Positions 2,415 to 63,331 of a stretch of DNA of 64,000 nt are shown here, in pieces. This stretch comes from Patescibacteria group bacterium (lineage in GTDB: Bacteria; Patescibacteriota; Microgenomatia; UBA1406): the NCBI GenBank assembly GCA_041665145.1, contig JBAYJK010000001.1, positions 421,629 to 485,628 on the forward strand, written 5' to 3'. The notes beneath the pieces are model-generated. The model saw nothing but the letters and a program-made list of their open reading frames with translations. It was not told the origin of the DNA and did no database searches. Each line of letters begins with the position of its first letter. Positions within the stretch are counted from its first letter, which is position 1. The position numbers were made by a program, and so were the translations under genes.

Positions 2415-2441
2415 TTAGCAGTATTGTAAACAGCCTGCTAA
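2415..2441 (-). promoter_or_regulatory. CIRCE-like inverted repeat (HrcA operator variant)
   Basis: TTAGCAG-N13-CTGCTAA is a perfect 7-bp inverted repeat. Its 27-bp total length and outer TTAGCA/TGCTAA halves match canonical CIRCE (TTAGCACTC-N9-GAGTGCTAA). It ends 1 nt from the hrcA ATG. Confidence 0.6.
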
Positions 2442-2499: not shown

Positions 2500-3117
2500 T
2501 CACCTGAACCATGAAGCAACACCGAGGGATGAGGGTATTCGGCCTACTTTATAACGCAAATCTTTTAGTGGCCGTTCTCCGATTTGTTTTGCAGGCACTC
2601 CTCCCATTATGGCAAAGGGCGGGACGTCTTTTGTAACCACGGCTCCGGCACCAATTATGGAACCTTTTCCGATTGTTACTCCGGGGAGAATTATTACACG
2701 GGGACCGATAAAAACATAGTCTTCAACGGTAACAGGCTCGGTGATAGGGTGGAAATCGTCTGCTTGTATATCGTGTTGTGACGTGTAGATCATGACGTCG
2801 GATGCGATATCGACATGTGAACCAATGGTAATTTTTCCCCGACCGTCGAGCGTGGCGTTTTCACCGATGAGCGTATCGTTTCCGACGGAAATACCGCCGA
2901 TCGTATAAAGCCGTAAACCCATGTAGATAGCCGAACCTTTCCCCAAACTGATTCCACTCAGCGAATATGCACATCGGCGGACAAAATGGGAAGGAAAATG
3001 ACCGATAAGATGTAACTTAAATACCCACAATTCGAAAAAAATAGCTTTTACACGATTGAATACTTTATAGGTAATTTCGTTCGGTGACAGCTCTTTTCCG
3101 TTTTTATCGTGAACCAT
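2500..3117 (-). CDS. Hexapeptide-repeat (left-handed beta-helix) acetyltransferase, WcaF/MAT-like
   Basis: 205 aa with repeated [LIV]G-x4 hexapeptide pattern ([28 protein letters not shown]...[25 protein letters not shown]). Confidence 0.75.
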
Positions 3118-3123
3118 GTAGTA

Positions 3124-3129
3124 ATTATA
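3124..3129 (-). promoter_or_regulatory. -10 box (TATAAT on minus strand) 6 nt before the acetyltransferase ATG
   Basis: Minus strand reads GGCATATAAT-TACTAC-ATG. No SD sequence is present. Confidence 0.45.
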
Positions 3130-3140
3130 TGCCTTTAAAA

Positions 3141-3149
3141 TGGTAAAAT
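3141..3149 (+). promoter_or_regulatory. Extended -10 (TGGTAAAAT) 6 nt before the uvrB ATG
   Basis: TGGTAAAAT-CTACCT-ATG(3156). No SD sequence is present. It is divergent from the acetyltransferase promoter. Confidence 0.45.
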
Positions 3150-3155
3150 CTACCT

Positions 3156-5165
3156 ATGCAATTCAAACTACATTCCCGTTTCAAACCGACAGGGGACCAA
3201 CCTCAGGCAATAGATAAGCTTGTTGAGGGTATTAAAAAAGATTATAAAGACCAGACGCTCATCGGTGTCACCGGGTCCGGAAAAACGTTCACCATAGCAA
3301 ATATGGTGGAGCGGCTGAATAAGCCGACGCTTATTATTTCGCATAATAAAACACTGGCTGCTCAGTTATACCAGGAATTCAGGGAATTCTTTCCGGAAAA
3401 CGCCGTCTCATATTTTGTCTCATATTATGATTTTTATCAACCGGAAGCATTTATCCCTTCGTCAAACACATATATTGAAAAGGAGGCGGATATTAACGAG
3501 CTTATCGATAAACTGCGTTTGCAGGCAACCACCAATCTTCTTTCTCGAAAAGATGTCTTGGTTGTTGCCTCAGTGTCATGTATCTATAACATTGGAAAAC
3601 CCGATAACTACGAACACTATACGAAAAGTATTAAAGTCGGGGATGACGTGGATCGAAAATCGTTTTATGCTCAGCTCGTACTTATGCAATATTCGCAAAG
3701 TCAGTTTGATTTTAAGCGTGGGACTTTTCGTGACCGGGGAGAGAATATCGACATCTACCCGTCATCGGAAGATATAGGGGTCCGTATCGAACTTATCGGC
3801 AATCGTATTTCGTCCCTGCGACTCATTGACCCGTTAACGGGCAAGACGGTGAAAGCATTGAATGAATACACCCTGTATCCTGCGCGACTTTATATGGCAG
3901 GTGGACAGGCGATGCAGTCAATACTTGACCAGATTCGGGAAGATGCACGGGTCGAATCAAAAGCATTAACCGATCAAGGAAAACTTGTGGAAGGCGACAG
4001 ATTATGGAAACGGGTAACTCACGATTTGGAACTTATTAAAGAAGTGGGATATGTTAACGGCATCGAGAACTATTCCCGCTACTTCGACGGCAGACAACCG
4101 GGCGAAGCTCCGTATAGTTTGTTGGAATATTTCCGACACAGCTATGAGGACGATTGGTTGCTATTTATTGACGAGTCGCACATGACTATTCCCCAGATCG
4201 GCGGGATGTATAACGGAGATTTCAGTCGTAAAGGAAACTTAATTAATTACGGTTTCAGATTGAAAGCAGCGTATGACAATCGTCCATTAAAATTTGAAGA
4301 ATTTCTGCCACGAGTAGGAAAAACCGTTTACGTTTCAGCAACACCCGCCGATTGGGAATTGAACAGGTCTCAGCAAGTGGTTGAACAACTTGTACGTCCG
4401 ACGGGAATTCCCGATCCGCAAATCAGTATTCGACCGGTAAAAAACCAGATAGATGATCTGATTAAAGAAATCGAGATTCGTGCCAAGAAAAAAGAGCGGG
4501 TGCTGGTTACGACTTTAACAAAAAGAATTGCGGAAGATTTATCGATGTTTCTGCAGGATAAAGGTGTGAAAGCGCAATATCTTCATTCGGACATTAAAAC
4601 ACTTGAGCGATCTGATGTTTTAGAAAAATTACGCAAAGGTGAATTTGATGTGCTTATTGGCATCAATCTTTTGCGTGAAGGACTTGATTTGCCCGAAGTC
4701 ACGCTTGTTGCGATATTGGACGCGGATAAGGAAGGGTTTTTGAGAAGCAAAACGGCGCTTGTCCAGACCATGGGCCGTGCGGCGCGCAACGTAGGCGGAG
4801 AAGTAATTCTCTATACCGATAAAATGACAAAGTCTATTACTGGAGCTGTGGAGGAAGTCAACCGCCGTAGAATATATCAAGAGAAATATAATAAAGAGCA
4901 CAACATTGACCCGAAAACTATTTTCAAACCTATCCGCGAAAAGGTGGTTATATCAGACGAGTCGGATCTCCAATTTTTCTTCTCAGACAAGAAATCGAAA
5001 TACGGCATGACGTCACTCAAAGACGTTACAACCGACAGCTTAACAGGTTATGACCGGAAGAAAATTATTGTTCGTCTTCGGCGACAGATGAAAAAAGAAG
5101 CGGATAACTTAAATTTCGAACTTGCCGCGCAGATAAGAGATAAAATAAAAGAATTAGAAAAATAG
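3156..5165 (+). CDS. uvrB: Excinuclease ABC subunit B
   Basis: 669 aa with a Walker A motif (GVTGSGKTFT), helicase motifs, and a C-terminal UVR motif (NFELAAQIRDKIKELE). Confidence 0.97.
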   Translation: MQFKLHSRFKPTGDQPQAIDKLVEGIKKDYKDQTLIGVTGSGKTFTIANMVERLNKPTLIISHNKTLAAQLYQEFREFFPENAVSYFVSYYDFYQPEAFIPSSNTYIEKEADINELIDKLRLQATTNLLSRKDVLVVASVSCIYNIGKPDNYEHYTKSIKVGDDVDRKSFYAQLVLMQYSQSQFDFKRGTFRDRGENIDIYPSSEDIGVRIELIGNRISSLRLIDPLTGKTVKALNEYTLYPARLYMAGGQAMQSILDQIREDARVESKALTDQGKLVEGDRLWKRVTHDLELIKEVGYVNGIENYSRYFDGRQPGEAPYSLLEYFRHSYEDDWLLFIDESHMTIPQIGGMYNGDFSRKGNLINYGFRLKAAYDNRPLKFEEFLPRVGKTVYVSATPADWELNRSQQVVEQLVRPTGIPDPQISIRPVKNQIDDLIKEIEIRAKKKERVLVTTLTKRIAEDLSMFLQDKGVKAQYLHSDIKTLERSDVLEKLRKGEFDVLIGINLLREGLDLPEVTLVAILDADKEGFLRSKTALVQTMGRAARNVGGEVILYTDKMTKSITGAVEEVNRRRIYQEKYNKEHNIDPKTIFKPIREKVVISDESDLQFFFSDKKSKYGMTSLKDVTTDSLTGYDRKKIIVRLRRQMKKEADNLNFELAAQIRDKIKELEK

Positions 5166-5736: not shown

Positions 5737-6957
5737 TTACATAAACGAACTATAGCGAGGGTCAATATCTGCAAGTTTCGGAGCAGCACGCACTCCATCA
5801 ATAAATTCTTCCGCACCCAAATTCGCGTTTGCATGTCGGCATAAATCTATCGGGCAAGTGCTGTCTCTTTCTGTTCTATTCATCTGTTCAATAACTTCTC
5901 TGTGCTTAGAGCTCGACCATATATGGGACCAGGAATTAGTTCTAATATTACCGATAGACAAATTTTTCATGTCGATTTCCGGATTTCCCAAATACACTTC
6001 GCCGTCAGGGTCAATTGCTGCGAAATGGCTGTGAACTGCGTTATAGCAAGCACGCGTTCTCTGTACCGGTTTAGTTTGTTGCATTAATGTAGTAGCAAAT
6101 CTTGTTAGCAATGGATGGCTTGAGTAATCGGTAGATAACATATGAAAGAGCTCAGCTTTTTCCTGAAATTGAAGTTCCACAGATTGCTGGCCCTTACCAT
6201 CGCCATAGTTATAATCTTGGACAAGTCGTAAACCGACAGTATCTACTCCCAGGCTTTCAAAAAATTTAACCATCCGCGGGGTGAACATATAATTTTTCCG
6301 GTTAACCAACAGTTTTACGTTAATAACGAGATCAGGATTATATTGTTCACGAAGGGCAATAATATTTCTTATGTTTTCTACAACTCGATCAAATTTGTCC
6401 ACTTGTTCTGTGTCGTGAAATAGTTCCCGGGTATCTCCCGAACAGCTGATGGACAGTAGATTCACCGACTGTAGGTTTCTGGGGTCTTTTGTGAGTTTAT
6501 CTAGTCGAATTCCGTTTGTCTGAACAAAGTTTTGCGCAAACGTTGAAGCGAACCCAAGTGCCTCTACTATATGTGGCCACACCATCGGTTCTCCTCCACC
6601 GGCCCAATATGTTCCCCGCGTCATTCCGCCGCTTTTTAAGTCCTCTAAAAGTTTAAAGACCGTGTCACGAGGTAAATCAACCAGAGAAAGCAGGTTTCCG
6701 GGAGATATTGTACGAGCGCGCTCAATAGCAGCTTTGTTTGCATACCTATAGGAACAGTGAGTGCAATTTGCGTTACAACGCCAAGTTGGCATGATTTCTA
6801 CTGTCCATGGACCTCCTGGTGTTGGCTCATTGTCAGCTAAACGCAATTGACTTCGCACGTGTGCAATATATGCAGCCCGCTCAGCAAAGTTATATGTATT
6901 ACGACCGGAAGTATCGACTGCAACTGAAAGCGTGCCGTCGTTTGTATCAACACTCAT
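5737..6957 (-). CDS. Radical SAM enzyme of unknown specificity
   Basis: 406 aa. It has a CxxxCxxC cluster (WRCNANCTHCSY), a GGEP motif (WAGGGEPMVW), and a C-terminal region with three Cys (RACYNA...STCPIDLC) resembling a partial SPASM/twitch extension. Confidence 0.8.
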   Translation of the reverse strand: MSVDTNDGTLSVAVDTSGRNTYNFAERAAYIAHVRSQLRLADNEPTPGGPWTVEIMPTWRCNANCTHCSYRYANKAAIERARTISPGNLLSLVDLPRDTVFKLLEDLKSGGMTRGTYWAGGGEPMVWPHIVEALGFASTFAQNFVQTNGIRLDKLTKDPRNLQSVNLLSISCSGDTRELFHDTEQVDKFDRVVENIRNIIALREQYNPDLVINVKLLVNRKNYMFTPRMVKFFESLGVDTVGLRLVQDYNYGDGKGQQSVELQFQEKAELFHMLSTDYSSHPLLTRFATTLMQQTKPVQRTRACYNAVHSHFAAIDPDGEVYLGNPEIDMKNLSIGNIRTNSWSHIWSSSKHREVIEQMNRTERDSTCPIDLCRHANANLGAEEFIDGVRAAPKLADIDPRYSSFM

Positions 6958-6965
6958 ATCGTCGT

Positions 6966-6974
6966 ATTATACCA
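6966..6974 (-). promoter_or_regulatory. Extended -10 (TGGTATAAT on minus strand) 8 nt before the radical SAM ATG
   Basis: Minus strand reads TGGTATAAT-ACGACGAT-ATG(6957). No SD sequence is present. Confidence 0.45.
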
Positions 6975-7041: not shown

Positions 7042-7050
7042 TGGTATACT
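7042..7050 (+). promoter_or_regulatory. Extended -10 (TGGTATACT) 10 nt before the uvrA ATG
   Basis: TGGTATACT-TTTACCCTTT-ATG(7061). No SD sequence is present. Confidence 0.4.
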
Positions 7051-7060: not shown

Positions 7061-10015
7061 ATGGATGTCATCAAAATTCGCGGTGCCCGGGTTCATAACT
7101 TGAAGAATGTGGACCTTGATATTCCCAAGAACAAATTGGTTGTGTTTACCGGCGTATCGGGTTCGGGGAAGAGTTCGTTGGCGTTTGATACGATCTATGC
7201 CGAAGGACAACGTCGGTATGTCGAGTCCTTGTCGTCATATGCACGACAATTTTTAGGTGTAATGGAAAAACCGGATGTTGATCTTATCGAAGGGCTGTCT
7301 CCGGCAATTTCAATCGATCAGAAAACTGCCTCGCATAATCCACGTTCAACTGTCGGAACAGTCACCGAAATTTATGACTATCTTCGCCTGTTGTATGCCC
7401 GAGCCGGTCACCCGCATTGTTATAACTGCGGCAGGGAAGTAAAGAAGTTATCACCTCAAGAAATCGTTGATTTGGTAATGAACCGTTTTGTGGAAATCGT
7501 GAAAAATGGAAAAGGGAAACCAGGCAGATTCCTGATTATGTCCCCAGTTGTGAAAGACAGAAAAGGTGAATTTAAAGAGCTTTTTGATAATGTCCGATAT
7601 AAGGGATATTCCCGTGTCAGAATCGATGGTTACTACTATAATCTGAACGATGACGACTTGTTTATTCTCAAGAACAACAAGCATACCATAGACATTATTA
7701 TTGACCGACTCACTATCGATCAAGCGACCATGAAAGATGAAAAGCGTGTTGCCGATCTTCGTTCCCGGGTTTTTAAAGCCGTCGAAAACGCACTTATACT
7801 GGCAGAAGGATTAGTGGTTCTTGCACATGTGAAGGATGCGGGATTTGACCTTCCCGATAGCCCGAAAGATTTACATGAAGAGCTCTATTCGGAACGTTTC
7901 TCATGTCCAGTTTGTAATATTTCTTTTGCAGAGCTTGAGCCCCGACTTTTCTCTTTCAACTCACCGGTCGGAGCATGCCCGCATTGCAAGGGATTGGGAA
8001 TAATTCTTAAGGTGAATCAGGATCTGGTTGCAAATCACGAACTTTCTATTGCTGAAGGAGCGATATTTCCGTTTCAAAAAATATTGTTTTACGACACGTG
8101 GACAAGCAGATTATTCAAAGTGTTTATTGATAAATACGCGATAAACCCGAACCGACCTTTGAAAGAATTAACTACTGCTCAACAGACCGCCCTGATGTTC
8201 GGATCACCGGATGTATTTACGGTAAAAGGTAAGAATAAGGAAGGGATTATGACGTCGATACACGAGAAGTGGGCAGGAGTTGTGGGTGAGCTTGAGAAAA
8301 AATATTACAGTACTGAAGTTGACTATTCTCGAGATGATATCGAAAAATATATGAAAGAGGAAGTGTGTCCGACGTGCAAGGGGCAAAAACTTAAACCAGA
8401 AGCACTGGGGGTTACAGTCGGAGACAAAAATATTGCTGATCTATGCGATTTGTCAATTCTCGAAGAAATCAAATTTTTTGCTGATATTACACCGCTCCTG
8501 ACACTTACCGAACAACAAATTGCCAAACCGATTGCAAAAGAGATCAGCACACGATTACATTTTTTAGGAAATGTCGGTCTTGGGTATCTCACGCTATCCC
8601 GGCGTGCGAAAACTCTTTCCGGTGGTGAGGCTCAACGCATACGTCTTGCTTCCCAAATAGGAACAGGGCTTACGGGAATAACCTATGTACTTGACGAGCC
8701 GTCAATCGGTTTGCACTCGCGTGATGTGCACCGTCTTTTGGAGGCGCTTACAAAATTACGTGATTTACAAAATAGCGTTGTCGTTGTCGAACACGATGAA
8801 GATACGATTCGTGCAGCGGATTGGCTGGTTGATTTTGGACCATTTGCCGGAAAAAACGGGGGCGAGATAGTGTTTAGCGGATTACCCACAGACATTACCA
8901 AAGAAAAAAAGTCGATAACCGGGGCGTTTCTTTCGGGCAAACGGTTGATAGCATCCCGGACAAATTCGCGAAAACCGGAGTTAACCATGACGTTTAACGG
9001 AGCGACAGCGCATAACCTGAAAAATGTTTCTGTCACGTTTCCGCTTAACAGAATGGTAGGAATTACCGGTGTTTCAGGTTCGGGGAAGTCGTCACTACTG
9101 TTGGAAACTATTTATCCGGCACTTGAAAAATATCTGAACCCTTATTACAAAGGAGAGAATCCACTTATAAAAAGCGTATCGGGTTTGGAAAACGTGCAAC
9201 GTGCCGTTTTGGTTGATCAATCTCCGATCGGAAGAACGCCACGTTCCAATCCCGCGACATACACCGGCGTGTTTACTTATATTCGAGATCTTTTCGCGTC
9301 TACGTTGGACGCCAAAGCTCGCGGCTACAGTCCCGGCAGATTCTCGTTTAACGTGAAAGGCGGAAGGTGTGAAAACTGTCAGGGAGCCGGAGTGATTAAG
9401 GTTGAAATGCAGTTTTTGGCTGATGTGTATATCACCTGTGACGTATGTAACGGCCGCCGATATAACAGCGAGACATTGGATGTTTTGTTCAAAGGCAAAT
9501 CCATCGACCAGGTAATCGGGATGAGTGTTGATGACGCCTTTACGTTTTTTGAGAATCACCACAAGATCCAAAAAATACTGCGGGTTATGCAGGATGTGGG
9601 ACTTGGGTACATCGAACTCGGGCAACCGGCGCCCACCTTATCAGGAGGAGAAGCACAGAGGGTGAAACTTGCGAAGGAATTGTATACGAATATTCATGTG
9701 CATAGCGTATATATTCTTGATGAGCCGACAACAGGGCTCCATATGTACGATGTTGATAAACTGATCGGTGTTTTGAGAAATCTTGTCGAGCAAGGAAATA
9801 CGGTTTTGGTAATTGAACACAACCTGGATGTCATTCGTAACTGTGATTATATTGTCGATCTCGGTCCGGACGGGGGTGACGCCGGAGGAAAGCTGTTGTT
9901 TCAGGGAACGGTTTCCGAGCTTATGAAAGACACACGTTCCTACACGGCGGAATATGTGAGAAAATATGGACATGGCGAAAAAAAAGAAGTCGAAAGTCGA
10001 AAGTCTAAAGTCTAA
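7061..10015 (+). CDS. uvrA: Excinuclease ABC subunit A
   Basis: 984 aa with two ABC ATPase modules (GVSGSGKSSLAFDT; GVSGSGKSSLLLET; two LSGGE signatures) and zinc-finger Cys pairs. The last 9 codons are encoded by a heptamer repeat array. Confidence 0.97.
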   Translation: MDVIKIRGARVHNLKNVDLDIPKNKLVVFTGVSGSGKSSLAFDTIYAEGQRRYVESLSSYARQFLGVMEKPDVDLIEGLSPAISIDQKTASHNPRSTVGTVTEIYDYLRLLYARAGHPHCYNCGREVKKLSPQEIVDLVMNRFVEIVKNGKGKPGRFLIMSPVVKDRKGEFKELFDNVRYKGYSRVRIDGYYYNLNDDDLFILKNNKHTIDIIIDRLTIDQATMKDEKRVADLRSRVFKAVENALILAEGLVVLAHVKDAGFDLPDSPKDLHEELYSERFSCPVCNISFAELEPRLFSFNSPVGACPHCKGLGIILKVNQDLVANHELSIAEGAIFPFQKILFYDTWTSRLFKVFIDKYAINPNRPLKELTTAQQTALMFGSPDVFTVKGKNKEGIMTSIHEKWAGVVGELEKKYYSTEVDYSRDDIEKYMKEEVCPTCKGQKLKPEALGVTVGDKNIADLCDLSILEEIKFFADITPLLTLTEQQIAKPIAKEISTRLHFLGNVGLGYLTLSRRAKTLSGGEAQRIRLASQIGTGLTGITYVLDEPSIGLHSRDVHRLLEALTKLRDLQNSVVVVEHDEDTIRAADWLVDFGPFAGKNGGEIVFSGLPTDITKEKKSITGAFLSGKRLIASRTNSRKPELTMTFNGATAHNLKNVSVTFPLNRMVGITGVSGSGKSSLLLETIYPALEKYLNPYYKGENPLIKSVSGLENVQRAVLVDQSPIGRTPRSNPATYTGVFTYIRDLFASTLDAKARGYSPGRFSFNVKGGRCENCQGAGVIKVEMQFLADVYITCDVCNGRRYNSETLDVLFKGKSIDQVIGMSVDDAFTFFENHHKIQKILRVMQDVGLGYIELGQPAPTLSGGEAQRVKLAKELYTNIHVHSVYILDEPTTGLHMYDVDKLIGVLRNLVEQGNTVLVIEHNLDVIRNCDYIVDLGPDGGDAGGKLLFQGTVSELMKDTRSYTAEYVRKYGHGEKKEVESRKSKV

Positions 10016-13285: not shown

Positions 13286-13291
13286 TACAAT
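13286..13291 (+). promoter_or_regulatory. -10 box (TACAAT) 6 nt before ATG 13298
   Basis: TACAAT-AGCCTC-ATG. It lies immediately after the uvrC stop, and no SD sequence is present. Confidence 0.35.
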
Positions 13292-13297: not shown

Positions 13298-13699
13298 ATG
13301 AAACGTTTTATACGGAGCGTTGTCTTTTATGCCGTTGCGATCTATCTTGTCGGGCTTGTTATTCCGGGTTTCAAGGTGGTTACGGATGTCCGCGGACTTA
13401 TCTTAAGCGGATTAACATTGTCGATACTGTTCACATTCGTCAAACCGATACTGCATTTTCTGTTACTTCCAATAAATGTTCTGACGCTCGGTTTGTTTTC
13501 ATTTCTTTCTTCGATACTGACGTTTTATCTTTTTCTGTATTTGTTTCCGTCATTTGTTAAAATCGAACCGTGGGTGTTTCAGGGAATCGTGCTTGCGGGA
13601 CTTAAAATCGGGACAATTGCCATTGGTCGTTTTGTAACCGTAGTTATGTCGACAGCTCTTATAAGTTTTATTGTTGGTACAATATCTTTCTTTCTATGA
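13298..13699 (+). CDS. Four-TM membrane protein, YvlD / holin-superfamily-IV-like
   Basis: 133 aa, four hydrophobic segments. The pattern VKPILHFLLLPINVLTLGLFSFL resembles the PF04020 family. Confidence 0.55.
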   Translation: MKRFIRSVVFYAVAIYLVGLVIPGFKVVTDVRGLILSGLTLSILFTFVKPILHFLLLPINVLTLGLFSFLSSILTFYLFLYLFPSFVKIEPWVFQGIVLAGLKIGTIAIGRFVTVVMSTALISFIVGTISFFL

Positions 13700-15306: not shown

Positions 15307-15312
15307 TATACT
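15307..15312 (+). promoter_or_regulatory. -10 box (TATACT) 6 nt before ATG 15319
   Basis: TATACT-GTTTGT-ATG. No SD sequence is present. Confidence 0.4.
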
Positions 15313-15318: not shown

Positions 15319-16254
15319 ATGTCCCAGATTGTCGTCACATTTACGCTTGGCGTCATCATCCTTCTTCTTTCGACGCAGTGGTTTTTGAAGGCTGCGGAGC
15401 GCATGTCTTTAGTGCTCCGGGTATCTCCGCTCATCATCGGATTGACTGTTGTTTCAATCGGCACGTCACTGCCGGAACTTGCGGTTTCGGCTATCGCAGT
15501 CTTTAACGGCGATTCGGGATTGGCTACGGGCAATATTATTGGCTCCAACATTATCAATGTGTTTTTGGTGTTTGGTATCGGCATCCTGTTGGGGAAGCTT
15601 CGAGTGGGAACACAGAAAACACAGAAAAACATCTACATGATGTGTGGAATTACCGCAGTATTTCTGTTGTTGTATTTTTTGCATGTTCCGAATGTTTTGT
15701 CCGGCATCATCCTACTTCTTGCCGCTCTGGTCGTGTCCATACAGGAGTATGTATGGGGAATCAAAGGACGGAAATTCGAAGATGCAGTATTGTACCTGAA
15801 AAACAAGCGAAAACGCGGCATTCCCTTAGATATCATAATGATCGGATTTTCGGTTGTGGGAATTATAGCGGGTGGAATGTTGACGGTCTCGTCGGTAGAA
15901 CGGTTGTCGGCGTTATTGGATATATCAACCACCATACTCGGATTGTCCGTGACAGCGATAGCCACATCGCTTCCCGAGCTTCTGACGACATTATTCAGCG
16001 AAAAGGATCACGAAGAGAAAATTACGATCGGCAACCTGATGGGCAGCAACATCTACAATCTGGCTTTGATCGGCGGTCTGATTCTGCTGTTTTCCCCTTG
16101 GAAATCCGTCACTTCGTACGAATCCGTAATGCTCATACTTGCGACTTTTGCTTTTACAATTACCGTGGCGATATATAAGGGTAAAGTAATTCCGAAAGGG
16201 GTCGGCCTCATCTTTTTGGGTATGTGCGTGGGCTACCTTTTTTTCCTTCAGTGA
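15319..16254 (+). CDS. Ca2+/Na+ antiporter (CaCA family, YrbG-like)
   Basis: 311 aa polytopic protein with two alpha-repeat motifs (GTSLPELAVS...GNIIGSNIINV and ATSLPELLTT...GNLMGSNIYN). Confidence 0.8.
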   Translation: MSQIVVTFTLGVIILLLSTQWFLKAAERMSLVLRVSPLIIGLTVVSIGTSLPELAVSAIAVFNGDSGLATGNIIGSNIINVFLVFGIGILLGKLRVGTQKTQKNIYMMCGITAVFLLLYFLHVPNVLSGIILLLAALVVSIQEYVWGIKGRKFEDAVLYLKNKRKRGIPLDIIMIGFSVVGIIAGGMLTVSSVERLSALLDISTTILGLSVTAIATSLPELLTTLFSEKDHEEKITIGNLMGSNIYNLALIGGLILLFSPWKSVTSYESVMLILATFAFTITVAIYKGKVIPKGVGLIFLGMCVGYLFFLQ

Positions 16255-16595: not shown

Positions 16596-17014
16596 TTTAC
16601 CAACCCTGCTATTCTACTAGACTCAGCCACACCTTTCAACTCGCGAACAACCAAACCGATTTTTTGACCCATATTGGTTACTTCAGGATGAGCCTCAATT
16701 ACTGTTTTTATTCTGCTTAGAAGTTCATCTTCTGGCATCTCTGCAGGTACGTATGAGGAAAGCACTTTCATTTCATACTCATTTTCCTCCACTAGGTCTG
16801 TTCTTCCACCTTTTTCAAACATAAGCTTGGCGTCGTTAATGGACTTCAGTTGCTTTCGGATAACTGCGACAACCTCCTCGTCTGTAAGCTCTCTATGTTT
16901 ATCTATTTCGGCATTTTTGATTTGAGAAATCAGACTGCGCAAAATTGTCACCTTTTTGCTTTCTTTCGCTTTCAATGCAGTAATCATGTCCTGTTGAAGT
17001 TGTTGTTTTATCAT
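16580..17014 (-). CDS. yqeY: GatB/YqeY domain protein
   Basis: 144 aa. MIKQQLQQDMITALKAKESKKVTILRSLISQIKNAEIDK... is typical of the YqeY family. Confidence 0.85.
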   Translation of the reverse strand: MIKQQLQQDMITALKAKESKKVTILRSLISQIKNAEIDKHRELTDEEVVAVIRKQLKSINDAKLMFEKGGRTDLVEENEYEMKVLSSYVPAEMPEDELLSRIKTVIEAHPEVTNMGQKIGLVVRELKGVAESSRIAGLVNKHKA

Positions 17015-17021: not shown

Positions 17022-17030
17022 AGTATAACA
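17022..17030 (-). promoter_or_regulatory. Extended -10 (TGTTATACT on minus strand) 7 nt before the yqeY ATG
   Basis: Minus strand reads TGTTATACT-AACATCT-ATG(17014). No SD sequence is present. Confidence 0.45.
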
Positions 17031-22409: not shown

Positions 22410-23714
22410 TTATTTGCTTCCGGAGACGAGTGGCACGGTTATCGAGGCTCCTGAATCAGATTTTATAGTTGCTGCGGATACTTTACTGAAAATCCAGAAG
22501 CGGTTGTAGTAATCATTGGTCTTGCTGCGGTATTTCAAGTTTCCGTAGCCGGCGACACTCAGTTTACTGGCCCCTCTCCGATTACTCCGGACTCGAATTG
22601 TCATACGACTGATGAACCACCATTGCCGTGAAACATCAGCTTGCAAAACCGTTAATACTTCATCAACCGTCGGGGGAAGTGCCGGTGCTGTGGTAGCTGT
22701 TGGTGCTTGAGTCGTAATTGCCGTCGGCTGAGGTATCTCGGTTGGAATTGGAGTGTTTGACGGGACTGGAGTATTGGTTGGTATCGGTGTGTTCGTTGGT
22801 ATTGGAGTGTTAGTTGGTATTGGGGTTGGAGTTTTGGTAGGGGTCGGAGTCTTCGTTGGTGTTGGTGTCGGAGTTCTTGTTGGAGTGGGAGTATTTGTCA
22901 GGGTAGGTGTCGGAGTTTTTGTTGCGGTTGGAATAGGAGAGTTTGCTGGTCGCGGTGCAGTTGTTGCAGAAGGAGCAGGTGTACCGGAAGCTATCGGTAT
23001 CGGTGTGCTTGTTGGTGTGAGACTTAGCACAACAGGAGTTGTGAAGTTAAAAGACAAATTCTGTACTGCTCCTAAAACATTGTTCGGCATACGTGTTGTC
23101 GGGGTCGGTCCGCTCGCAACCGTAGGGACAATCATGGATTCGACCAAAACACTATTACCGGTTCCGTTTGTTGCGAAATCAAACGTCAAAGATCCTGCTC
23201 CTGTTTTTAGGGGGTGCAGTATTAATGTTGCAATTGTTTCTTTCGAATTGGTGAGTAAGGGATAATACAAACCCTGCGGATCCTGGAGATTCCGAGCTGT
23301 TACGGATATATCTACATATGACTTTCCTTGGGCATCCGTTGCAAAAATCGGATTGACAACCTTGTACTTCAAAAGACTGAGTGTGGCAGGATTTACATCT
23401 GTTGTATACAACGTGATGGGTGACGTGATTGTTATGAGCGTCGGGTCATAGAAAAAAACTGCCTCAGCTGTCTCAATTTTGTGTGCAAAGGAATTGACCA
23501 CGACGTCAACCCGAACATCCTGCCCTGCCGTAAAATTCCACACACCGCTCGCGTCGGCAGATCCAGTTGTAGGAACGAATGATAATGATGCATTTCCCGA
23601 TGCTTTTGTATTTGTTTTGAAATTAGATCCGAGAAAAAGAAGGCTTGCAATTATGCCAAGAGTAACCAGAACGGGGACAAGCACAGATCCGCTGCGGAGT
23701 TTCAGTATGTTCAT
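22410..23714 (-). CDS. Secreted/anchored protein: cohesin-like N-terminal domain + TP-rich linker + ~100-aa C-terminal domain
   Basis: 434 aa with an N-terminal TM/signal. Residues ~42-200 show a cohesin-like pattern ([33 protein letters not shown] ... [22 protein letters not shown]). The linker is [47 protein letters not shown]. Confidence 0.45.
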
Positions 23715-23753
23715 GTTAATGATAATTGTAATATATATTTACTATTTCGTAAT

Positions 23754-29329: not shown

Positions 29330-29839
29330 TTAGGGTGTTTGTCCCTGCCGGGCATTCATCACATTTTGTGGGGCTAGATATGCAAACTCTTGCTGCATTC
29401 CCGGTGGCAGAAGACGATATGTCTCGTATGCGAGTTGCTGTTTCTGCATTAGTAATGCATCATCACTATTGTCTGAAATAAGACGGGCGATCTCAACTGC
29501 TAGATTACGAAGCTCGTCGCGAAGAATTGAACTGTATTTTGCTCCTCCAAAATCGGGTTGGTCAGTTAAAGTTATAACCCATCCACTCTCCACTGGTATT
29601 GCAACAAAGAAAGCCTTGTTTGAACGGGCGAGCGTTCGCACGTTTGGAGGAATGCGAAACATCTGAGCAAACTGGGCATCAGTAGCAATAAGTCGCACGT
29701 GTTGGGGAAGAAGGGAAAATTGTTCTCTGGTGGCAAGTAGCTGACGTATCCATTCTCGTCGAAGCGTCCATATATCTATCGTCTGTTCTGTACGACGCTC
29801 AGCGGTCTTGACCATTGGATGTATTGTAACAGAAATCAC
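29330..29839 (-). CDS. Hypothetical protein (169 aa from GTG 29839; more likely 161 aa from ATG 29815)
   Basis: The ORF shows no motif I recognise. ATG 29815 is preceded by an extended -10 at the leaderless spacing seen elsewhere in the window. Confidence 0.5.
   Translation of the reverse strand: MISVTIHPMVKTAERRTEQTIDIWTLRREWIRQLLATREQFSLLPQHVRLIATDAQFAQMFRIPPNVRTLARSNKAFFVAIPVESGWVITLTDQPDFGGAKYSSILRDELRNLAVEIARLISDNSDDALLMQKQQLAYETYRLLPPGMQQEFAYLAPQNVMNARQGQTP
29823..29831 (-). promoter_or_regulatory. Extended -10 (TGTTACAAT on minus strand) 7 nt before ATG 29815
   Basis: Minus strand reads TGTTACAAT-ACATCCA-ATG. No SD sequence is present. Confidence 0.4.
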
Positions 29840-29865
29840 AAAATGTGGGAAGGGGAAGTGTGGAT

Positions 29866-29899
29866 GGCCAGACCGCGTATCTCAATACGCGGTCTGGCC
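29866..29899. other. Perfect 15-bp-stem hairpin (GGCCAGACCGCGTAT-CTCA-ATACGCGGTCTGGCC)
   Basis: Read directly from the sequence. It is the longest perfect palindrome noticed in the window. It could be a terminator for minus-strand transcription or the terminal helix of the structured element. Confidence 0.7.
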
Positions 29900-30535
29900 T
29901 GAGAGACTAAGGGCTCTCACATCCCTGTCATGGTTGGCCCTTTCTTAAGGGGCCCGTCGGTAAAGGTCAATCGCCGCAAGACGTGAAGGAATTGGTCGTG
30001 AAACCAAAACTTAACACGGAGCTCACCTCCTTTCAACCTGTGCCGATCATGACATCTTGGGGGCATTTCAGCCCCCACGTTATTTGGCGGCACGTGGCCG
30101 CCACATCCAAAAAACAATGCAAAGAGTCAACGAGGGGACTCTTGTTCCCTTTGGCGTCCCTAAAGGACACGCCCGTTCACCCAGGTCTTACATGGCTATG
30201 AACTATTGAACATAGTTCCTCCTTTCTGTGGGTCCCGCAGATGCGGGACAGGCCATCCATTTCGCGCGGTTGGTACTCGCGTCACATTGAGGAACCGCGC
30301 GTTCCTCAACTCCATCCCGCCAATCGGCAGGAAGGTTAAGCCACCTCGCGGCAGCCAAGATACCGGGTGTTTGCGCACAAGAGTGCGTTTACTTCCTCTC
30401 CGCGAGCATGAGGAAGAACCCGACTCTGCGTTATGTGAGGGCACAGGCATTAGTGCCCGCACACCGCCAGAGTATGCGCATTGTAATACCGGTAGACTGT
30501 CAAATCAAGCGAAGTTACGCAGGGAGTAAGTAGCG
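29866..30535. ncRNA. Candidate large structured noncoding element, class unknown, strand unresolved
   Basis: ~700 bp with no credible ORF. At least nine stems of 6-15 perfect bp occur: 29866-29899, 29900-29919, 30059-30076, 30086-30102, 30200-30218, 30232-30249, 30264-30300 or 30289-30307, 30392-30416, 30435-30462. Hand-counted G+C is 32/60 (29941-30000) and 37/60 (30241-30300), versus 27/60 and 29/60 in flanking coding lines. Confidence 0.35.
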
Positions 30536-30543
30536 AGTATGTA

Positions 30544-31563
30544 TTATGCGTTCGATTTTTCGCGATACCGGAGTATTTCCTGGAAGAAAATTGTTGCAGC
30601 TGCGACGAACGGAATAGCCAAAAGTACTCCTGAAAATCCGGCAAGTTTTCCTCCAACAATCAGAGAGATGAGAACAGCAAGGGGCGGGATACCGACTGCC
30701 TGCTTCATAACAAAGGGGACGATGAGATTGTTCTCTAGCTGTTGAATAATGGTCTGCATGACGATTGTCATGAGAGCTAAGGGAAGCGAAACGGAAATTG
30801 CCACGAAGAACACAGGTATGAGGGAGAGTATAGGCCCGATTATGGGGAATACCTCAAAAATTCCTGCAATGAATGCCAGTGGAAGCGCGTAGGGAACCTG
30901 TAAAATTAGCAATCCGATATAGGTCATCGCGCCGATCGTTATCATAAGTACTAATTCGCCGCGAACCCAAGAACCGAGTTTCTTTTCAAGCTGTGCTAGC
31001 GTATCTTTAGCGCTTATCGCCTGTTGTTTACTCAGAAACCGATCAAAAAACAACGGAACCTGTTTTATCCCTGTCAGGAAATACAACGTAAAGAAAAATA
31101 CCGTTACTACATTTACTGTATTCAAGAGCACCGAAAAAACGGCTTGTGTGATTGTTGTCGTAACATTCGGTATGTATTGTGTCAAAGACTGTAGGGGGAT
31201 CAATTCCTGTAAATGCAATTGGGTGTTGAATTGTTGCAGTAAGCGCGGACCCTCCTGTGCTATGTATATGATGAAACCGGTCATCTCACGAACGAGAGGC
31301 GGAATGGTGTACGTTAAGATGCCGACCAGCACACTGATGGTGATCACAATAACCAGAAGCGCGGCTATTACCCGGGGAAGTTTCAACCGTTCCAATAAGT
31401 CTACCGACGGCTTTAGGGCAGACATGAAAATAAAGGACAAAAAGAGGTTTATGAAAAGCTCTTGCAATTGGAAAAGCAGGTACAACAGTATGACAAATCC
31501 GATGGTGAAAACTATGGTTTTTGCACTGATTTCAACGTGTACGCGCGGTGATTGGTCTTTCAT
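30544..31563 (-). CDS. AI-2E family transporter (PerM/YhhT, UPF0118)
   Basis: 339 aa polytopic protein. The C-terminal pattern GIFEVFPIIGPILSLIPV...IIQQLENNLIVPFVMKQAVGIPPLAVLISLIVGGKLAGFSGVLLAIP is typical of the family. Confidence 0.85.
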   Translation of the reverse strand: MKDQSPRVHVEISAKTIVFTIGFVILLYLLFQLQELFINLFLSFIFMSALKPSVDLLERLKLPRVIAALLVIVITISVLVGILTYTIPPLVREMTGFIIYIAQEGPRLLQQFNTQLHLQELIPLQSLTQYIPNVTTTITQAVFSVLLNTVNVVTVFFFTLYFLTGIKQVPLFFDRFLSKQQAISAKDTLAQLEKKLGSWVRGELVLMITIGAMTYIGLLILQVPYALPLAFIAGIFEVFPIIGPILSLIPVFFVAISVSLPLALMTIVMQTIIQQLENNLIVPFVMKQAVGIPPLAVLISLIVGGKLAGFSGVLLAIPFVAAATIFFQEILRYREKSNA

Positions 31564-31570: not shown

Positions 31571-31579
31571 AGTATATCA
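31571..31579 (-). promoter_or_regulatory. Extended -10 (TGATATACT on minus strand) 7 nt before ATG 31563
   Basis: Minus strand reads TGATATACT-TATTTCA-ATG. No SD sequence is present. Confidence 0.45.
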
Positions 31580-31729
31580 AATTATGAGAAATGCTCGCTT
31601 CGTTGTTTCTTGGCCTCCGTGAAGATTCATGATCGATCATGTTCTAGTAGAATCTCCAAGTCGGCAGAAACAAGTAGCTCGCATTTCTCAGTTTTGCATC
31701 ACGCCTTGATCTTTTGACTCATATTTCAT

Positions 31730-34700
31730 ATGATGTCACCAATGAATGACTTCGTTCACCTTCATGTGCACTCCGAATTTTCCCTGCTTGACGGGTTGCC
31801 GAAACTTGACAAACTTGCCGCAAAGGTAAAAGAGCTGGGAATGGATGCTGTTGCCTTAACCGACCACGGGGCGATGTACGGATCATTTAAATTTTTTTTG
31901 AAGGCAAAAGATTATGGAATCAAGCCGATTATCGGTTGTGAGGTGTATATGGCCGAGAAATCCCGTTTTGATAAACAAAAGAAAATGGGTGCGGACCAGT
32001 ATCATTTGGTTTTGTTGGCAGAAAATATGACAGGGTACAAAAACCTTATGAAATTGGTGAGTTACGCAAATCTGGAAGGGTTTCACTACAAGCCGCGCAT
32101 TGATGTTGAGTTGTTGGAGAAATATCACGAAGGAATTATCTGTCTTTCGGGTTGTATGGGGAGTCTGCTTTCCCAAAGCATCATGAACAACGAACCGGAA
32201 AAGGCAGAACACTGGATTAAAACCTTTTCAGGAATTTTTGGGGAAGGCAATTTTTTTATTGAAATTCAACGGCACCCCGGAATAAAAGGACTTCCCGAAC
32301 TGAACGAGGAGCTTATTAAGTATTCGCGAAAATTTGGCTTGCCACTTGTTGCCACAAACGACTCGCACTATTTGGATAAAGACGATGCATATGCGCAAGA
32401 AATTTTGCTCTGCATACAGACTCGTACATCTATAGAAGAAAAAAACCGGCCGCTTTCCATGTATGATGTTCCCGATTTTTATCTGAAATCGGCAGATGAA
32501 ATGAAACAGGCGTTTCTCGATATTCCGGAGGCCATCGAGAATACCGTGAAAATCGCCGCCCGCTGTAATGTGGAAATCCCGTTCGGCAAATGGATTCTTC
32601 CCTACTATGAAGTGCCCGAAGGTGAAACCGTCGAAACATGGTTACGCAAAATGACGGCAGAGAAAATGTCGCTTCGCCTTCCCGCCATCACGGAAGAAAT
32701 AAAGAAACGGATCGATTATGAATTAGATATCATCATTAAGAAAGGTTACGCCGCCTATTTTCTGATCGTTCAGGACTTTGTAAATTGGGCAAAGGGACAC
32801 GGTGTAGCCGTCGGTCCCGGTCGTGGTTCTGCGGCAGGGTCACTGGTAGCTTACATAATAAGTATTACGGAAGTTAACCCTTTGACGCACAATCTCCCGT
32901 TTGAACGTTTTCTGAATCCTGATCGTCCGACGCCGCCGGACATTGACATTGATTTTGCAGATGTGCGTCGAGATGATGTGGTGCGGTATGTTTCTCGCCA
33001 TTACGGAGAAGACAAAGTCGGACAGATCATTACCTTCGGGTCCATGGAGGCGCGTATGGTTGTCCGTGATGTTTCCCGTGCGCTCGGTTGGTCGTATTCT
33101 CAGGGAGACCGCATTGCAAAACTTATTCCGCAACCGAAACAGGGGTTTCCCGTTACGATAGATATTGCTCTCAAGGAATCAAGCGAGCTTGCTCACCTAT
33201 ATGAGACTGACACCGATATTAAGAATATGATCGATGTTTCCAAAAAACTTGAAGGCTTGGTGCGGCATTCTTCCGTCCATGCAGCCGGAGTTGTGGTTGC
33301 CGACAAACCCTTGAGTGATTATGTGCCTATTCAACGTGAAGAGCGGGGAGGTAAGATTATTACTCAATACGATATGTATTGTCTCGATTTAAATGCTGTT
33401 TCTGACGGACGTGCGGTCGGATTACTTAAATTCGACTTTTTGGGATTACGGAATCTTTCAATCCTGGAAAAAGCGCTTCTGTATGTGCAGCAAAATCGCA
33501 ATGAAACCATCGAGTTGAATAAGGTGTCTCTTGAGGATGAGTCAACGTACCATCTGATTGCAAGTGGAGAAACCGTCGGGGTTTTTCAACTTGAGTCCCG
33601 GGGAATGCGGCATTTGGCAAAGGAACTGAAACCGACGAGATTCTCGGATATCTCCGCTATGGTTGCGTTATTCAGACCGGGACCAATGGCGCTTATTCCG
33701 ATATTTGTTGAAGGCAAAAAAAATCCCAAGAAAATCAAGTATCTTCATCCTGATTTGAAGCCGATTTTGTCTGAGACATATGGAATTCTCGTATATCAGG
33801 AACAGGTTACCGAAATTGCCCATAAGCTTGCAAAATTCACCATGAGTGAAGCGGACACTCTCCGTATGGCAATGGGTAAGAAGAAAAAAGAATTGATGCG
33901 AAAGGGTAAACAGAAATTTTTGGAGGGGTGCCAGGAAATGGGTTACCCGCTTAAAATGGCTGAACAGCTCTTTGAGTTTATCGAGAAATTTGCTGCATAC
34001 GGTTTCAACAAAGCGCACTCGGCAAGTTACGCGATGATCGCCTATTGGACGGCTTACGTAAAAGCACACTACCCGGTGGAATTTATGACAGCCTTACTGA
34101 CCGCAGAAATCGAACACGCAACGGGCGCGGATCGGGAACAGAAGGTGAATCAGATTCTTGAGGAATGCCGACGGATGGAAATACCGGTATTGCCGCCTGA
34201 TATCAATAAGTCCGTTGCTGCTTTCTCTATTGAGGATACAAAGTCCATCCGTTTTGGACTCGGGGCGATACGCAACGTTGGAACAGCTGCGGTAGAAGCA
34301 ATTGTACAATCCCGGTCGGAAAAACCATTCGGTTCCATGAGAGATTTTTTGACCCGTGTAGATTTGAGGAAAGTAAATAAGAAAACGGTGGAAAGTATGG
34401 TAAAAGCAGGTGCATTTGACGCATTCGGCAAACGTTCACAGCTTGTGGCCTTTTATACCTCTATAGTTAAGGACATTCAGTCTGTAAAGGCCAAAAGTGA
34501 TGACGGACAGTTTGGTTTGTTTGCTGATACGGGATTCAATGAACAGAAAAACGAGGCGACGGTCGACAATTTGCCGGATATGGCAGAATACAGTGAAGAT
34601 GAGTTGTTGGAGTTTGAACGGGAAACAATCGGATTTAATCTTTCAAAAAATCCTCTTGAAAAATATCAGGGAATTTTCAGGCAAAAAAGAGTCGTGGCCA

Positions 34701-36036: not shown

Positions 36037-36059
36037 AACAAACCTTTGAGAGGAGGTGA

Positions 36060-43418: not shown

Positions 43419-43469
43419 GTCAGTATTTCCTATCAGCTATTTCTGATTGATTTTCTGCAGCTTTCCCGT

Positions 43470-43475
43470 TATAAT
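43470..43475 (+). promoter_or_regulatory. -10 box (TATAAT) 8 nt before ATG 43484 of rplS
   Basis: TATAAT-CCTTGCAT-ATG. No SD sequence is present. Confidence 0.45.
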
Positions 43476-43798: not shown

Positions 43799-43811
43799 AC
43801 TTCAAGCAAAT

Positions 43812-43880
43812 TCGAAGTTCGAATATCGAAATCCGAAACAATCCAGTAGCAGATTGCTAAATTGCTATATTGTTGTGTAT
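43812..43880. repeat. Degenerate 7-bp tandem array (TCGAAGT TCGAATA TCGAAAT CCGAAAC ... TTGCTAA ATTGCTA TATTGTT)
   Basis: Read directly from the sequence. The segment 43854-43876 matches 45257-45279 at 21/23 positions. Confidence 0.8.
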
Positions 43881-43903
43881 AAGCCGTGGCTTAATATGTT
43901 TTT

Positions 43904-44278
43904 GTGATATATCCTTGTTTCGTGAAACAATTCAATAGCTCAATCGGACGACAAGGTGAGGACATCGCAACTTCCTATTTAATTGACAAGGGATATGTCA
44001 TCATAGAACGAAATTTCAAAGTAAATCTCGGAGAGATAGATATTATCGCAAAGCACCGGGGCTTTCTTGTTTTTGTCGAGGTTAAGTATCGTACATCATT
44101 GTATTATGGGGAGCCGTACGAAGCAGTAAATATTCGTAAGTTATCTAAGCTCCGAAGACTTGTGGATTATTACTATCTTCTCAACAAACCAACGTCGTCA
44201 CCAAAAATAGAAATACTGTCAATTCTTAAGACAGATGAGAAATATTGTATTCGCCATATACAAACGATCATATTTTAG
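43904..44278 (+). CDS. yraN: YraN family (UPF0102) endonuclease-like protein
   Basis: GEDIATSYLIDKGYVIIERNFKVNLGEIDIIAKHRGFLVFVEVKYR is the family signature. It uses a non-ATG start, and the exact start is uncertain. Confidence 0.8.
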   Translation: MIYPCFVKQFNSSIGRQGEDIATSYLIDKGYVIIERNFKVNLGEIDIIAKHRGFLVFVEVKYRTSLYYGEPYEAVNIRKLSKLRRLVDYYYLLNKPTSSPKIEILSILKTDEKYCIRHIQTIIF

Positions 44279-44312
44279 TTAATATACTGTATTACCAATT
44301 TATTATAATCAT

Positions 44313-44546
44313 ATGGATACACAAGCCACACCTCCCGCCGAAGAAAAAATTTTGGCAACTGTTCAAAAATCTGAAACCGATGTAATCAAGATCAGGGAAA
44401 CTGAATTCAAAGGAAAAGTCTATGTCGATATTCGAATTTATACGAAGACTGCAGACGGTACCGAGATTCCAACAAAAAAAGGAGTTATGGTAACCAAAGA
44501 AATTATGAAGCAGGTGCGTGACGAACTTGACAAAGTGGAACTCTAA
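44313..44546 (+). CDS. PC4/YdbC-like single-stranded DNA-binding protein (tentative)
   Basis: 77 aa. IKIRETEFKGKVYVDIRIYTKTADGTEIPTKKGVMVTKEIMKQV fits the pattern of the bacterial PC4-like family. Confidence 0.55.
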   Translation: MDTQATPPAEEKILATVQKSETDVIKIRETEFKGKVYVDIRIYTKTADGTEIPTKKGVMVTKEIMKQVRDELDKVEL

Positions 44547-44587
44547 AGTCAATAGGTATAAAATAATTTCAGAAAGGGGATGAAACA

Positions 44588-46213: not shown

Positions 46214-46291
46214 TCACTGAAATTTGACAAATAGAACTTTTTGTATATCATAGGTTTTACCTTAAAAATAATTATTATTAGTTAACTACTA

Positions 46292-49655: not shown

Positions 49656-49664
49656 TGTTATAGT
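49656..49664 (+). promoter_or_regulatory. Extended -10 (TGTTATAGT) 7 nt before the gap ATG
   Basis: TGTTATAGT-TTAAACG-ATG(49672). No SD sequence is present. Confidence 0.4.
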
Positions 49665-51972: not shown

Positions 51973-52000
51973 TTGCATCTTTTTTTCCTTTCTCTATACT
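51973..52000 (+). promoter_or_regulatory. Promoter TTGCAT-16 nt-TATACT, 6 nt before the ppsA ATG
   Basis: TTGCAT (51973-51978), TATACT (51995-52000), then GATAGT and ATG (52007). No SD sequence is present. Confidence 0.5.
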
Positions 52001-61904: not shown

Positions 61905-61951
61905 AAAACAGCCCCATTATATAGAATTTACGTCTTCTGGGCAAGGCGCGA

Positions 61952-63322: not shown

Positions 63323-63331
63323 ATTATAGCA
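63323..63331 (-). promoter_or_regulatory. Extended -10 (TGCTATAAT on minus strand) 8 nt before ATG 63314
   Basis: Minus strand reads TGCTATAAT-CGCCTTCT-ATG. No SD sequence is present. Confidence 0.45.

Follow-up and report, generated by a model that had tools for sequence, protein, structure and literature searches.

The window analysed here, 64,000 nucleotides of contig JBAYJK010000001.1 (assembly GCA_041665145.1, positions 421,629 to 485,628 of the forward strand) from a Patescibacteria group bacterium, includes the genes hrcA, uvrB, uvrA, yqeY, rplS, atpE, gap, ppsA and gatC, and many of its genes have an ATG that stands only a few nucleotides downstream of a TATAAT-like hexamer. These hexamers and the use of Shine-Dalgarno (SD) sequences were studied in the window and in flanks from the same genome (L021 and L028), 80,159 bp in all, of which protein genes occupy 94% and whose GC content is about 44%. 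The best homologues from named sources of its UvrB and ATP synthase subunit a come from Candidatus Roizmanbacteria, Microgenomates, Gottesmanbacteria or Patescibacteria group members (55–70% identity), and by these proteins the organism is therefore a Microgenomates-like (Roizmanbacteria-like) member of the candidate phyla radiation (CPR). The gene set consists of 73 genes with coordinates that match independent gene calls. First-cistron candidates were chosen blind to the motif, as genes whose upstream neighbour is on the opposite strand or is separated by a gap of at least 30 nt (n = 30), so transcription-unit boundaries are deduced only from strand changes and gaps; the other 43 genes are called internal, and 2457 ATGs that are not starts serve as background. 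A "strict" hexamer is a TAnnnT in which at least five of the six positions equal TATAAT.

Fourteen hexamer sites were listed in a first-pass annotation, and their hexamers, coordinates, spacers and ATG starts are correct. The hexapeptide-repeat acetyltransferase gene (minus strand, ATG at 3117) has TATAAT at 3124–3129, 6 nt from its start, and forms half of a 38 bp divergent promoter pair with uvrB (plus strand, ATG at 3156), which has the extended -10 sequence TGGTAAAAT at 3141–3149, also at 6 nt. Extended -10 sequences likewise precede uvrA (TGGTATACT, 7042–7050, plus strand, 10 nt from the ATG at 7061), gap (TGTTATAGT, 49656–49664, plus strand, 7 nt from the ATG at 49672) and, on the minus strand, a radical SAM/SPASM gene (TGGTATAAT, 6966–6974, 8 nt from the ATG at 6957), yqeY (TGTTATACT, 17022–17030, 7 nt from the ATG at 17014), open reading frame (ORF) 29815, which encodes a hypothetical protein of 161 amino acids (aa) (TGTTACAAT, 29823–29831, 7 nt from the ATG at 29815), an AI-2E/PerM transporter gene (TGATATACT, 31571–31579, 7 nt from the ATG at 31563) and ORF 63314, for a 228-aa hypothetical protein (TGCTATAAT, 63323–63331, 8 nt from the ATG at 63314). 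The sites of hrcA, ORF 13298, the Na+/Ca2+ (CaCA) antiporter gene and ppsA, for which full coordinates had not been given, were located: hrcA (minus strand, 2415–2451) has -35 TTGACA (2446–2451), 17 nt, -10 TACAAT (2423–2428), an 11/12 match, with its ATG (2413) at a spacing of 9 nt; ORF 13298, for a holin_4_2-family membrane protein, has TACAAT at 13286–13291 (plus strand), 6 nt from its ATG at 13298; the antiporter gene has TATACT at 15307–15312 (plus strand), 6 nt from its ATG at 15319; and ppsA has TTGCAT-16-TATACT at 51973–52000 (plus strand), 6 nt from its ATG at 52007. Finally, rplS has TTGATT-17-TATAAT at 43447–43475 (plus strand), a 10/12 match, 8 nt from its ATG at 43484. Some of the genes proposed as first genes, ORF 13298 and gap, start only 12–18 nt past the preceding gene, so their promoters sit within that gene's 3' end (the uvrC and GPI genes, respectively) and are better called internal promoters.

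Several sites can be added to that list. A gene for a 434-aa protein has TACAAT at 23725–23730 (minus strand), 10 nt from its ATG at 23714, and gatC has TATAAT at 61916–61921 (minus strand), 11 nt from its ATG at 61904, which predicts a gatC mRNA that is leaderless or has a leader of a few nucleotides. The dnaE gene is a further candidate, with TTGATC-17-TATGAT 7 nt before an ATG at 31742 (31706–31744, plus strand), and mraZ has TTGACA-17-AATAAT 8 nt from its start. The spacers of the 21 sites are 6 nt (six sites), 7 nt (five), 8 nt (three), 9 nt (two), 10 nt (three) and 11 nt (two), with a mode of 6–7 nt.

The annotation had predicted that such hexamers would be enriched before first cistrons beyond the AT-rich background, and an upstream motif profile of the 80 kb bears this out: a strict hexamer at a spacer of 6–10 nt is present at 17 of the 30 first-cistron candidates and at 2 of the 43 internal genes (Fisher, p = 7e-7), compared with 33 of 2457 non-start ATGs (1.3%). 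Genes transcribed divergently are first cistrons by necessity, and nine of twelve such genes have a strict hexamer at 6–11 nt, or eleven when the relaxed calls at dnaE and mraZ are counted. Between genes the DNA is rich in AT, and TAnnnT, a pattern of low information, is found in any form at this spacing before 6.5% of non-start ATGs, which would favour an origin by chance; however, composition shuffles of the 38 nt that precede the first-cistron starts gave a mean of 1.6 sites and circular rotations, which keep the motifs and randomise their positions, a mean of 3.5, and none of 5000 trials of either kind reached the observed 17. The signal also appears when annotation is set aside. A start-free statistic based on any ATG that opens at least 100 codons was too noisy from internal ATGs and was replaced by one that takes the first ATG of each ORF of at least 80 codons, which gives a 4.1-fold per-position peak at spacers of 6–10 nt here, and a 4.3-fold peak in the Saccharibacteria locus L011; in 473 kb from other phyla, some of it from loci whose GC is similar or lower, there is none (0.8-fold). 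As the layout is in addition kept at orthologous genes (see below), chance is effectively refuted and has next to no probability as an explanation.

The hexamers have the surroundings expected of promoters. TG lies one base upstream (-15/-14) at 8 of the 21 sites, as against a background of 6.3% and a share of 6.7% among the 495 strict hexamers of the whole 80 kb (p = 2e-5), and T is enriched 22–23 nt before the hexamer, where a TTGnnn spaced by 17 nt would lie; TTGnnn is recognisable at 16–17 nt at hrcA (a perfect TTGACA-17-TACAAT), rplS and ppsA. The base before the start codon is a pyrimidine at 17 of the 21 sites and at 27 of the 52 other genes, and purines make up 31% of the last four nucleotides at hexamer sites versus 54% at other genes. 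With the A and T of the ATG, the pyrimidine at -1 forms a Y-1 R+1 Y+2 start element centred on the A of the ATG; an element of this form, together with a transcription start site (TSS) whose centre is 7 bp past the -10, has been described across 49 bacteria (PMC12641261). At a spacer of 6–7 nt the A of the ATG is the seventh or eighth nucleotide after the -10 and thus occupies the canonical TSS position (PMC12641261). The start codon itself does not discriminate, since ATG is used at 20 of the 21 sites and at 50 of the 52 other genes. Pairing with the anti-SD is weak at the hexamer sites (mean -0.95 kcal/mol, with none of the 21 at -6), in agreement with the earlier observation that these genes have no SD.

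The clearest case is the acetyltransferase/uvrB intergenic region (3118–3155), whose 38 bp hold a pair of -10 boxes set back to back at a distance of 14 bp; either box is 6 nt from its own ATG, and no space is left for a 5' untranslated region (UTR) on either side. The -35 region of each promoter overlaps the -10 of the other, and the two promoters probably compete. Divergent intergenic regions of 38–46 bp are present. These features bear on the possibility that TAnnnT acts in the mRNA, as a non-SD, AU-rich ribosome-binding or enhancer element within a normal leader (the GeneMarkS-2 "group B" or Bacteroidota type), with transcription starting further upstream. In its favour, SDs are scarce in the genome and A is abundant around the starts of the other genes, as is typical of genomes with non-SD ribosome binding. 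A ribosome-binding site would, however, be expected at internal cistrons too, where the motif is found at only 2 of 43 genes against 17 of 30 first cistrons; the upstream TG, the TTG of -35 type at 16–18 nt and the pyrimidine at -1 are features of promoters, and at the 38 bp divergent region any promoter lying further upstream would fall within the adjacent coding sequence. We therefore regard an element of this kind as very improbable.

An explanation of equally small probability is that the promoters are real and the annotated starts are wrong, translation beginning at a downstream codon behind an ordinary leader. Gene callers do differ, depending on assembly, on yqeY (135 or 144 aa) and on dnaE (1080 or 1084 aa); the dnaE ATG at 31742 gives the 1080-aa product, which is called in two assemblies, and the alternative start of the 1084-aa ORF is at 31730. 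Yet exact-sequence look-ups found all fourteen listed starts to be identical to those chosen independently by NCBI PGAP and JGI, and UvrB, UvrA and glyceraldehyde-3-phosphate dehydrogenase (GAPDH) align to homologues from residues 1–4: UvrB from residue 3 with its orthologues (FKL...GDQ), UvrA from residue 1 with the native methionine of solved UvrA (motif RGARVHNLK), and GAPDH from residue 4 with residues 1–5 of solved enzymes (motif NGFGRIG), and these conserved motifs start no further than 3–10 residues from the proposed methionine. L19, the rplS product, is already short, and its ORF opens only two codons upstream. In the relatives it is the calls that ignore an ATG beside a -10 box that appear to be mistaken: uvrA of the relative L052 (L052:13473) was called at an internal GTG, and the upstream ATG (which encodes MDHIRIRGARVHNLK) follows TGGTATACT at 9 nt, and the holin gene of the same genome (L052:19549) was called at a TTG rather than at the ATG 6 nt after TAAAAT. 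Gene callers err or disagree where a -10 box abuts the ATG, at these two genes, dnaE and yqeY.

Four relatives (L052–L055), with UvrB proteins 65–69% identical to that of the window, were obtained through protein database and contig look-ups; pattern scans for UvrB in genomes and metagenomes gave only relatives of 59% identity or less. The four are syntenic with the window over dnaJ-dnaK-grpE-hrcA-acetyltransferase / uvrB ... uvrA-transglutaminase-uvrC-holin-secG. Their uvrB genes are preceded, in order, by TGTTAAAAT at 9 nt, TGGTAGAAT at 6 nt, TGATAAAAT at 6 nt and TGGTACAAT at 9 nt (versus TGGTAAAAT at 6 nt in the window), and their acetyltransferase genes, in the same order, by TAAAAT at 7 nt, TGCTAAAAT at 6 nt, TGCTAAAAT at 6 nt and TACTAT at 10 nt (versus TATAAT at 6 nt). 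In all five genomes hrcA has TTGACA-17-TAnAnT followed by 7–9 nt to the ATG, the four holin orthologues have TAAAAT or TACAAT at 6–10 nt, uvrA has TGGTATACT at 9 nt in L052 and TGCTATACT at 9 nt in L055, and yqeY has TGGTATAAT at 9 nt in L054 and TGTTATACT at 6 nt in L055. The hexamer, spacer and discriminator sequences vary between genomes, and it is therefore the layout that is conserved and not the sequence. Overall, the signal is present in L052–L055 at 20 of 34 first genes and 5 of 42 internal genes (p = 2e-5), and 12 of the 25 sites are TG-extended.

The same arrangement is found before uvrB in more distant Patescibacteria and Saccharibacteria: TGGTACAAT lies 7 nt from a GTG in L001 and L030, TGGTATACT at 9 nt in L002, TGCTAAAAT 9 nt from a GTG in L003 and at 7 nt in L011, and TAGAAT at 6 nt in L010. 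The uvrB start is thus GTG in some relatives, and the Saccharibacteria loci have divergent pairs of 35–48 bp at uvrB too. With crude ORF calls the signal is present at 20 of 65 genes in Patescibacteria loci versus 15 of 270 in loci from other phyla (p = 1e-7). As judged from these four Roizmanbacteria-like relatives and two Saccharibacteria loci, the layout is a trait of the lineage and not a peculiarity of the window. We note that L001 and L003 are GTDB representative metagenome-assembled genomes (MAGs) titled "uncultured Gammaproteobacteria", and both have a uvrB promoter of the Patescibacteria type. L001 and L030 (Hain-H43-01um, by its name apparently from Hainich groundwater) do not differ in the 60 nt before uvrB or in the gene's first 30 nt, and the uvrB upstream region of L001 resembles that of the Patescibacteria MAG L002; the Gammaproteobacteria label of L001 and L003 is probably wrong.

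At the remaining genes, too, SD sequences are rare. It had been claimed that operon-internal genes have clear SDs, and this fails: within -20 to -4 of the start codon only 4 of the 43 internal genes have any SD 4-mer, versus 17.8% of random ATGs, and the duplex energy with the anti-SD (the canonical anti-SD being assumed) is -1.38 kcal/mol at the non-leaderless starts versus -2.06 at background ATGs. The same method gives -8.7 kcal/mol for a Clostridia locus. In the four relatives SDs are weak as well, with a mean duplex energy of -1.1 kcal/mol and no internal gene at -6. Of the two initiation modes that had been proposed, leaderless first cistrons and SD-dependent downstream ones, the first is well supported and the second is not, SD-like sequences at internal genes being at or below background here and in the four relatives. 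Internal genes are instead packed tightly behind their neighbours, 26 of the 43 overlapping the upstream gene (10 of these as ATGA) and 13 more lying within 15 nt of it, and the 20 nt upstream of them contain 40% A and 16% G, as against 28% and 23% in the genome. From this overlap or abutment and this A-rich, G-poor upstream sequence we infer that downstream cistrons would also be initiated independently of SDs, by translational coupling or re-initiation together with unstructured, A-rich start regions.

Three starts in the 80 kb reach -6 kcal/mol. The SD that had been noted before atpE, GAGAGGAGGTGA at 36048–36059 (plus strand), 9 nt from the ATG at 36069, is real (-13.3 kcal/mol, the strongest in the 80 kb) and a conserved exception to the SD-poor rule: it recurs as GGAAGGAGGTGA, AAAAAGGAGATGA and GAAGGGAGGTGA in L056, L057 and L058 (L056:1394, L057:3336, L058:3381), in which atpB, atpF, atpH and atpA are without an SD. 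Across the four genomes an SD is missing from all the other atp genes and from nearly all other genes. This suggests that the anti-SD has kept its function and serves genes that must be translated at a very high rate, for example that of the c-ring subunit, and at atpE it looks like selective retention of an SD because the c subunit is needed in high stoichiometry. Pairing between SD and anti-SD probably remains available, then, and is apparently reserved for such rare cases. Some first cistrons would be leadered. Among them, ORF 17426 and ORF 44588 have weak SD-like strings, and at pgm (46224–46291) a near-consensus TTGACA-16-TATCAT lies 40 nt upstream and is followed by an AT-rich leader without an SD; pgm is a putative example of leadered initiation that is nevertheless SD-independent.

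Taken together, the position of the hexamers, their restriction to first cistrons, the TG and -35 features, the Y-1/R+1 element, the 38–46 bp divergent regions and the conservation in relatives support the earlier proposal of leaderless initiation, and the first cistrons of most transcription units are very probably made as leaderless mRNAs from sigma-70 -10 boxes that abut the ATG. The hexamers would be -10 elements recognised by a housekeeping factor of the sigma-70 type; some 40% are extended (TGnTAnnnT) and have a weak -35. From the position of each, RNA polymerase would begin transcription on the A of the start codon or no more than a few nucleotides away. About 60% of transcription units (57–63% of first cistrons) would then have a leaderless first cistron, with a leader of at most about 0–4 nt, and ribosomes would bind straight to the 5'-terminal AUG, SD pairing playing no part; by analogy with the leaderless mRNAs of other bacteria, initiation may depend on 70S ribosomes or on IF2-fMet-tRNA.

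A number of points weigh against this reading. The word leaderless is here taken from promoter geometry, and 7 of the 21 sites have spacers of 9–11 nt, at which the TSS may lie 1–4 nt upstream of the ATG; hrcA, for one, has a TA step 3 nt before its ATG. The 80 kb examined belong to a contig of at least 0.92 Mb. Scans of 60 kb for sigma-70 -35/-10 pairs and for intrinsic terminators gave counts not above those of shuffles, and canonical terminators are not evident, so that generic promoter and terminator scans were unable to delimit transcription units. Lastly, rpsT may be leadered: a TATAAT is conserved 32–34 nt upstream of it in two genomes (L021:938–983 and L055:1031–1162), and a weaker hexamer stands close to its start codon as well. 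Ribosomal protein S20 is autoregulated in other bacteria, and a leadered rpsT would be in line with this. In the upstream extension rpsT and murJ had been considered as leaderless genes and were not counted, the former because its TATAAT at 32–34 nt suggests a leader and the latter because its orthologue is ambiguous.

The hrcA promoter has a further property. A CIRCE-like inverted repeat, TTAGCAGGC-N9-TACTGCTAA (2415–2441, minus strand), straddles its -10 and ends 1 nt before the ATG. The CIRCE consensus, found upstream of heat-shock operons, is TTAGCACTC-N9-GAGTGCTAA, and the hrcA repeat matches 14 of its 18 positions; the TTAGCAG/CTGCTAA arms are kept in all five genomes (the window and L052–L055), upstream of hrcA-grpE-dnaK-dnaJ. 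A putative HrcA operator appears to be built into the promoter itself, as there would be no 5' UTR to hold it. In the flank that adjoins the window on its upstream side, between dnaK and dnaJ (L021:5948–6001), a GC hairpin GGGGCCGGGTTTCCCGGCCC followed by a T-run resembles a terminator or attenuator, which is unusual in a sequence where intrinsic terminators are otherwise not enriched.

Two gene-poor stretches of the window were also observed. About 650 nt at 29,840–30,540 (minus strand) have no called gene, a GC content of 53–57% (versus 44% for the genome) and dense GC hairpins; TTGATT-17-TACAAT (30508–30480) precedes this stretch and a long perfect hairpin stands at its end, just upstream of the ORF 29815 promoter. 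Its predicted RNA fold has an energy of -272.5 kcal/mol (z = -6.55 versus shuffles), and no Rfam match at E of 1 or less and no tmRNA were found in it; it is a candidate for a large structured non-coding RNA. The 789 nt after rplS (43,799–44,587) contain only short, unconvincing ORFs and have no Rfam match. In the window as a whole and in three gaps with few genes, Rfam searches gave two tRNAs and nothing else.

The mechanism itself is ordinary, as in Deinococcus or Mycobacterium, and what would be new is the lineage in which it is found; the informative parts are that lineage, the leaderless share of about 57–63% and the near absence of SDs elsewhere. GeneMarkS-2 "group C" genomes have a Pribnow box 6–8 nt (about -10) from the start codon of first genes and no SD there, are frequent in Actinobacteria (90%) and Deinococcus-Thermus (97%), and are predicted to have 25–50% of their operons leaderless; in D. 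deserti 167 of 262 genes with a mapped TSS are leaderless (PMC6028130). Group C members (Mycobacterium, Streptomyces and Corynebacterium, and Deinococcus-Thermus) thus resemble this genome in having a -10 box localised about 10 nt from first-gene starts, and by comparison its leaderless share is at the high end. They differ in that their remaining genes are modelled with an SD-type ribosome-binding site, whereas here internal and leadered genes are almost without SDs, and the genome does not fit group C in this respect. No Patescibacteria, CPR or Microgenomates-like lineage is among the taxa named in the main text of PMC6028130. A literature search, which was not exhaustive, found no paper that links leaderless initiation with CPR or Patescibacteria.

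In haloarchaea SDs play little part at leadered or internal genes and are not known to be used at 5' UTRs, and this general SD independence is shared with the present genome. Their promoters differ, with TATA/BRE elements about 26 nt upstream and archaeal initiation factors, whereas a bacterial sigma-70 -10 or extended -10 would serve here. Bacteroidota-type "group B" genomes also resemble this one in that SDs are rare genome-wide, starts are A-rich and a few genes have a strong SD, as rpsU does in Bacteroidota and atpE does here. In group B, however, mRNAs have leaders and one non-SD motif is shared by the upstream regions of all genes, operon-internal genes among them (PMC6028130), and the promoter-like motif of this genome, at 2 of 43 internal genes, sets it apart from that group. 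The high leaderless fraction of Haloferax volcanii and Halobacterium salinarum (PMC6028130) is a second likeness to haloarchaea. The phage lambda cI mRNA (from PRM) and that of Tn1721 tetR likewise have a 5'-terminal AUG that is used directly (PMC10491246); these are isolated cases in SD-using hosts, whereas here leaderless initiation is the apparent default for first cistrons. As for the CPR ribosome, the anti-SD is lost only in part of the Parcubacteria and bS1 is short; leaders are not discussed (PMC9297842).

A wider generalisation, to which we give slightly less than an even chance, is that first cistrons are by default initiated without a leader in much of the Patescibacteria/CPR radiation, of which Microgenomates-like and Saccharibacteria genomes show the pattern here, together with a near-complete abandonment of SDs in which the anti-SD is kept for a few stoichiometry-critical genes such as atpE. 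If true, this would tie the reduced CPR ribosome, with its short bS1 and missing proteins (PMC9297842), to a simplified and possibly ancestral-like form of initiation, and gene callers that rely on SDs would be placing starts wrongly in CPR MAGs in a systematic way. That SD-centred calls are error-prone there is indicated by the two miscalls in L052 and by the disagreements between calls in the present genome. The question of whether leaderless initiation is ancestral also gains a lineage that branches deeply and has a reduced genome. In Saccharibacteria, which have recently become tractable, expression cassettes made as promoter-ATG fusions would be preferable to those with SD leaders. Because there would be no 5' UTR to host a regulatory element, regulation of these genes would have to act at the promoter, as the CIRCE-like repeat around the hrcA -10 exemplifies, and the difference between atpE and the other genes offers a natural contrast for the remaining uses of SD pairing. 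Much of bacterial diversity belongs to the Patescibacteria, whose gene expression is almost uncharted.

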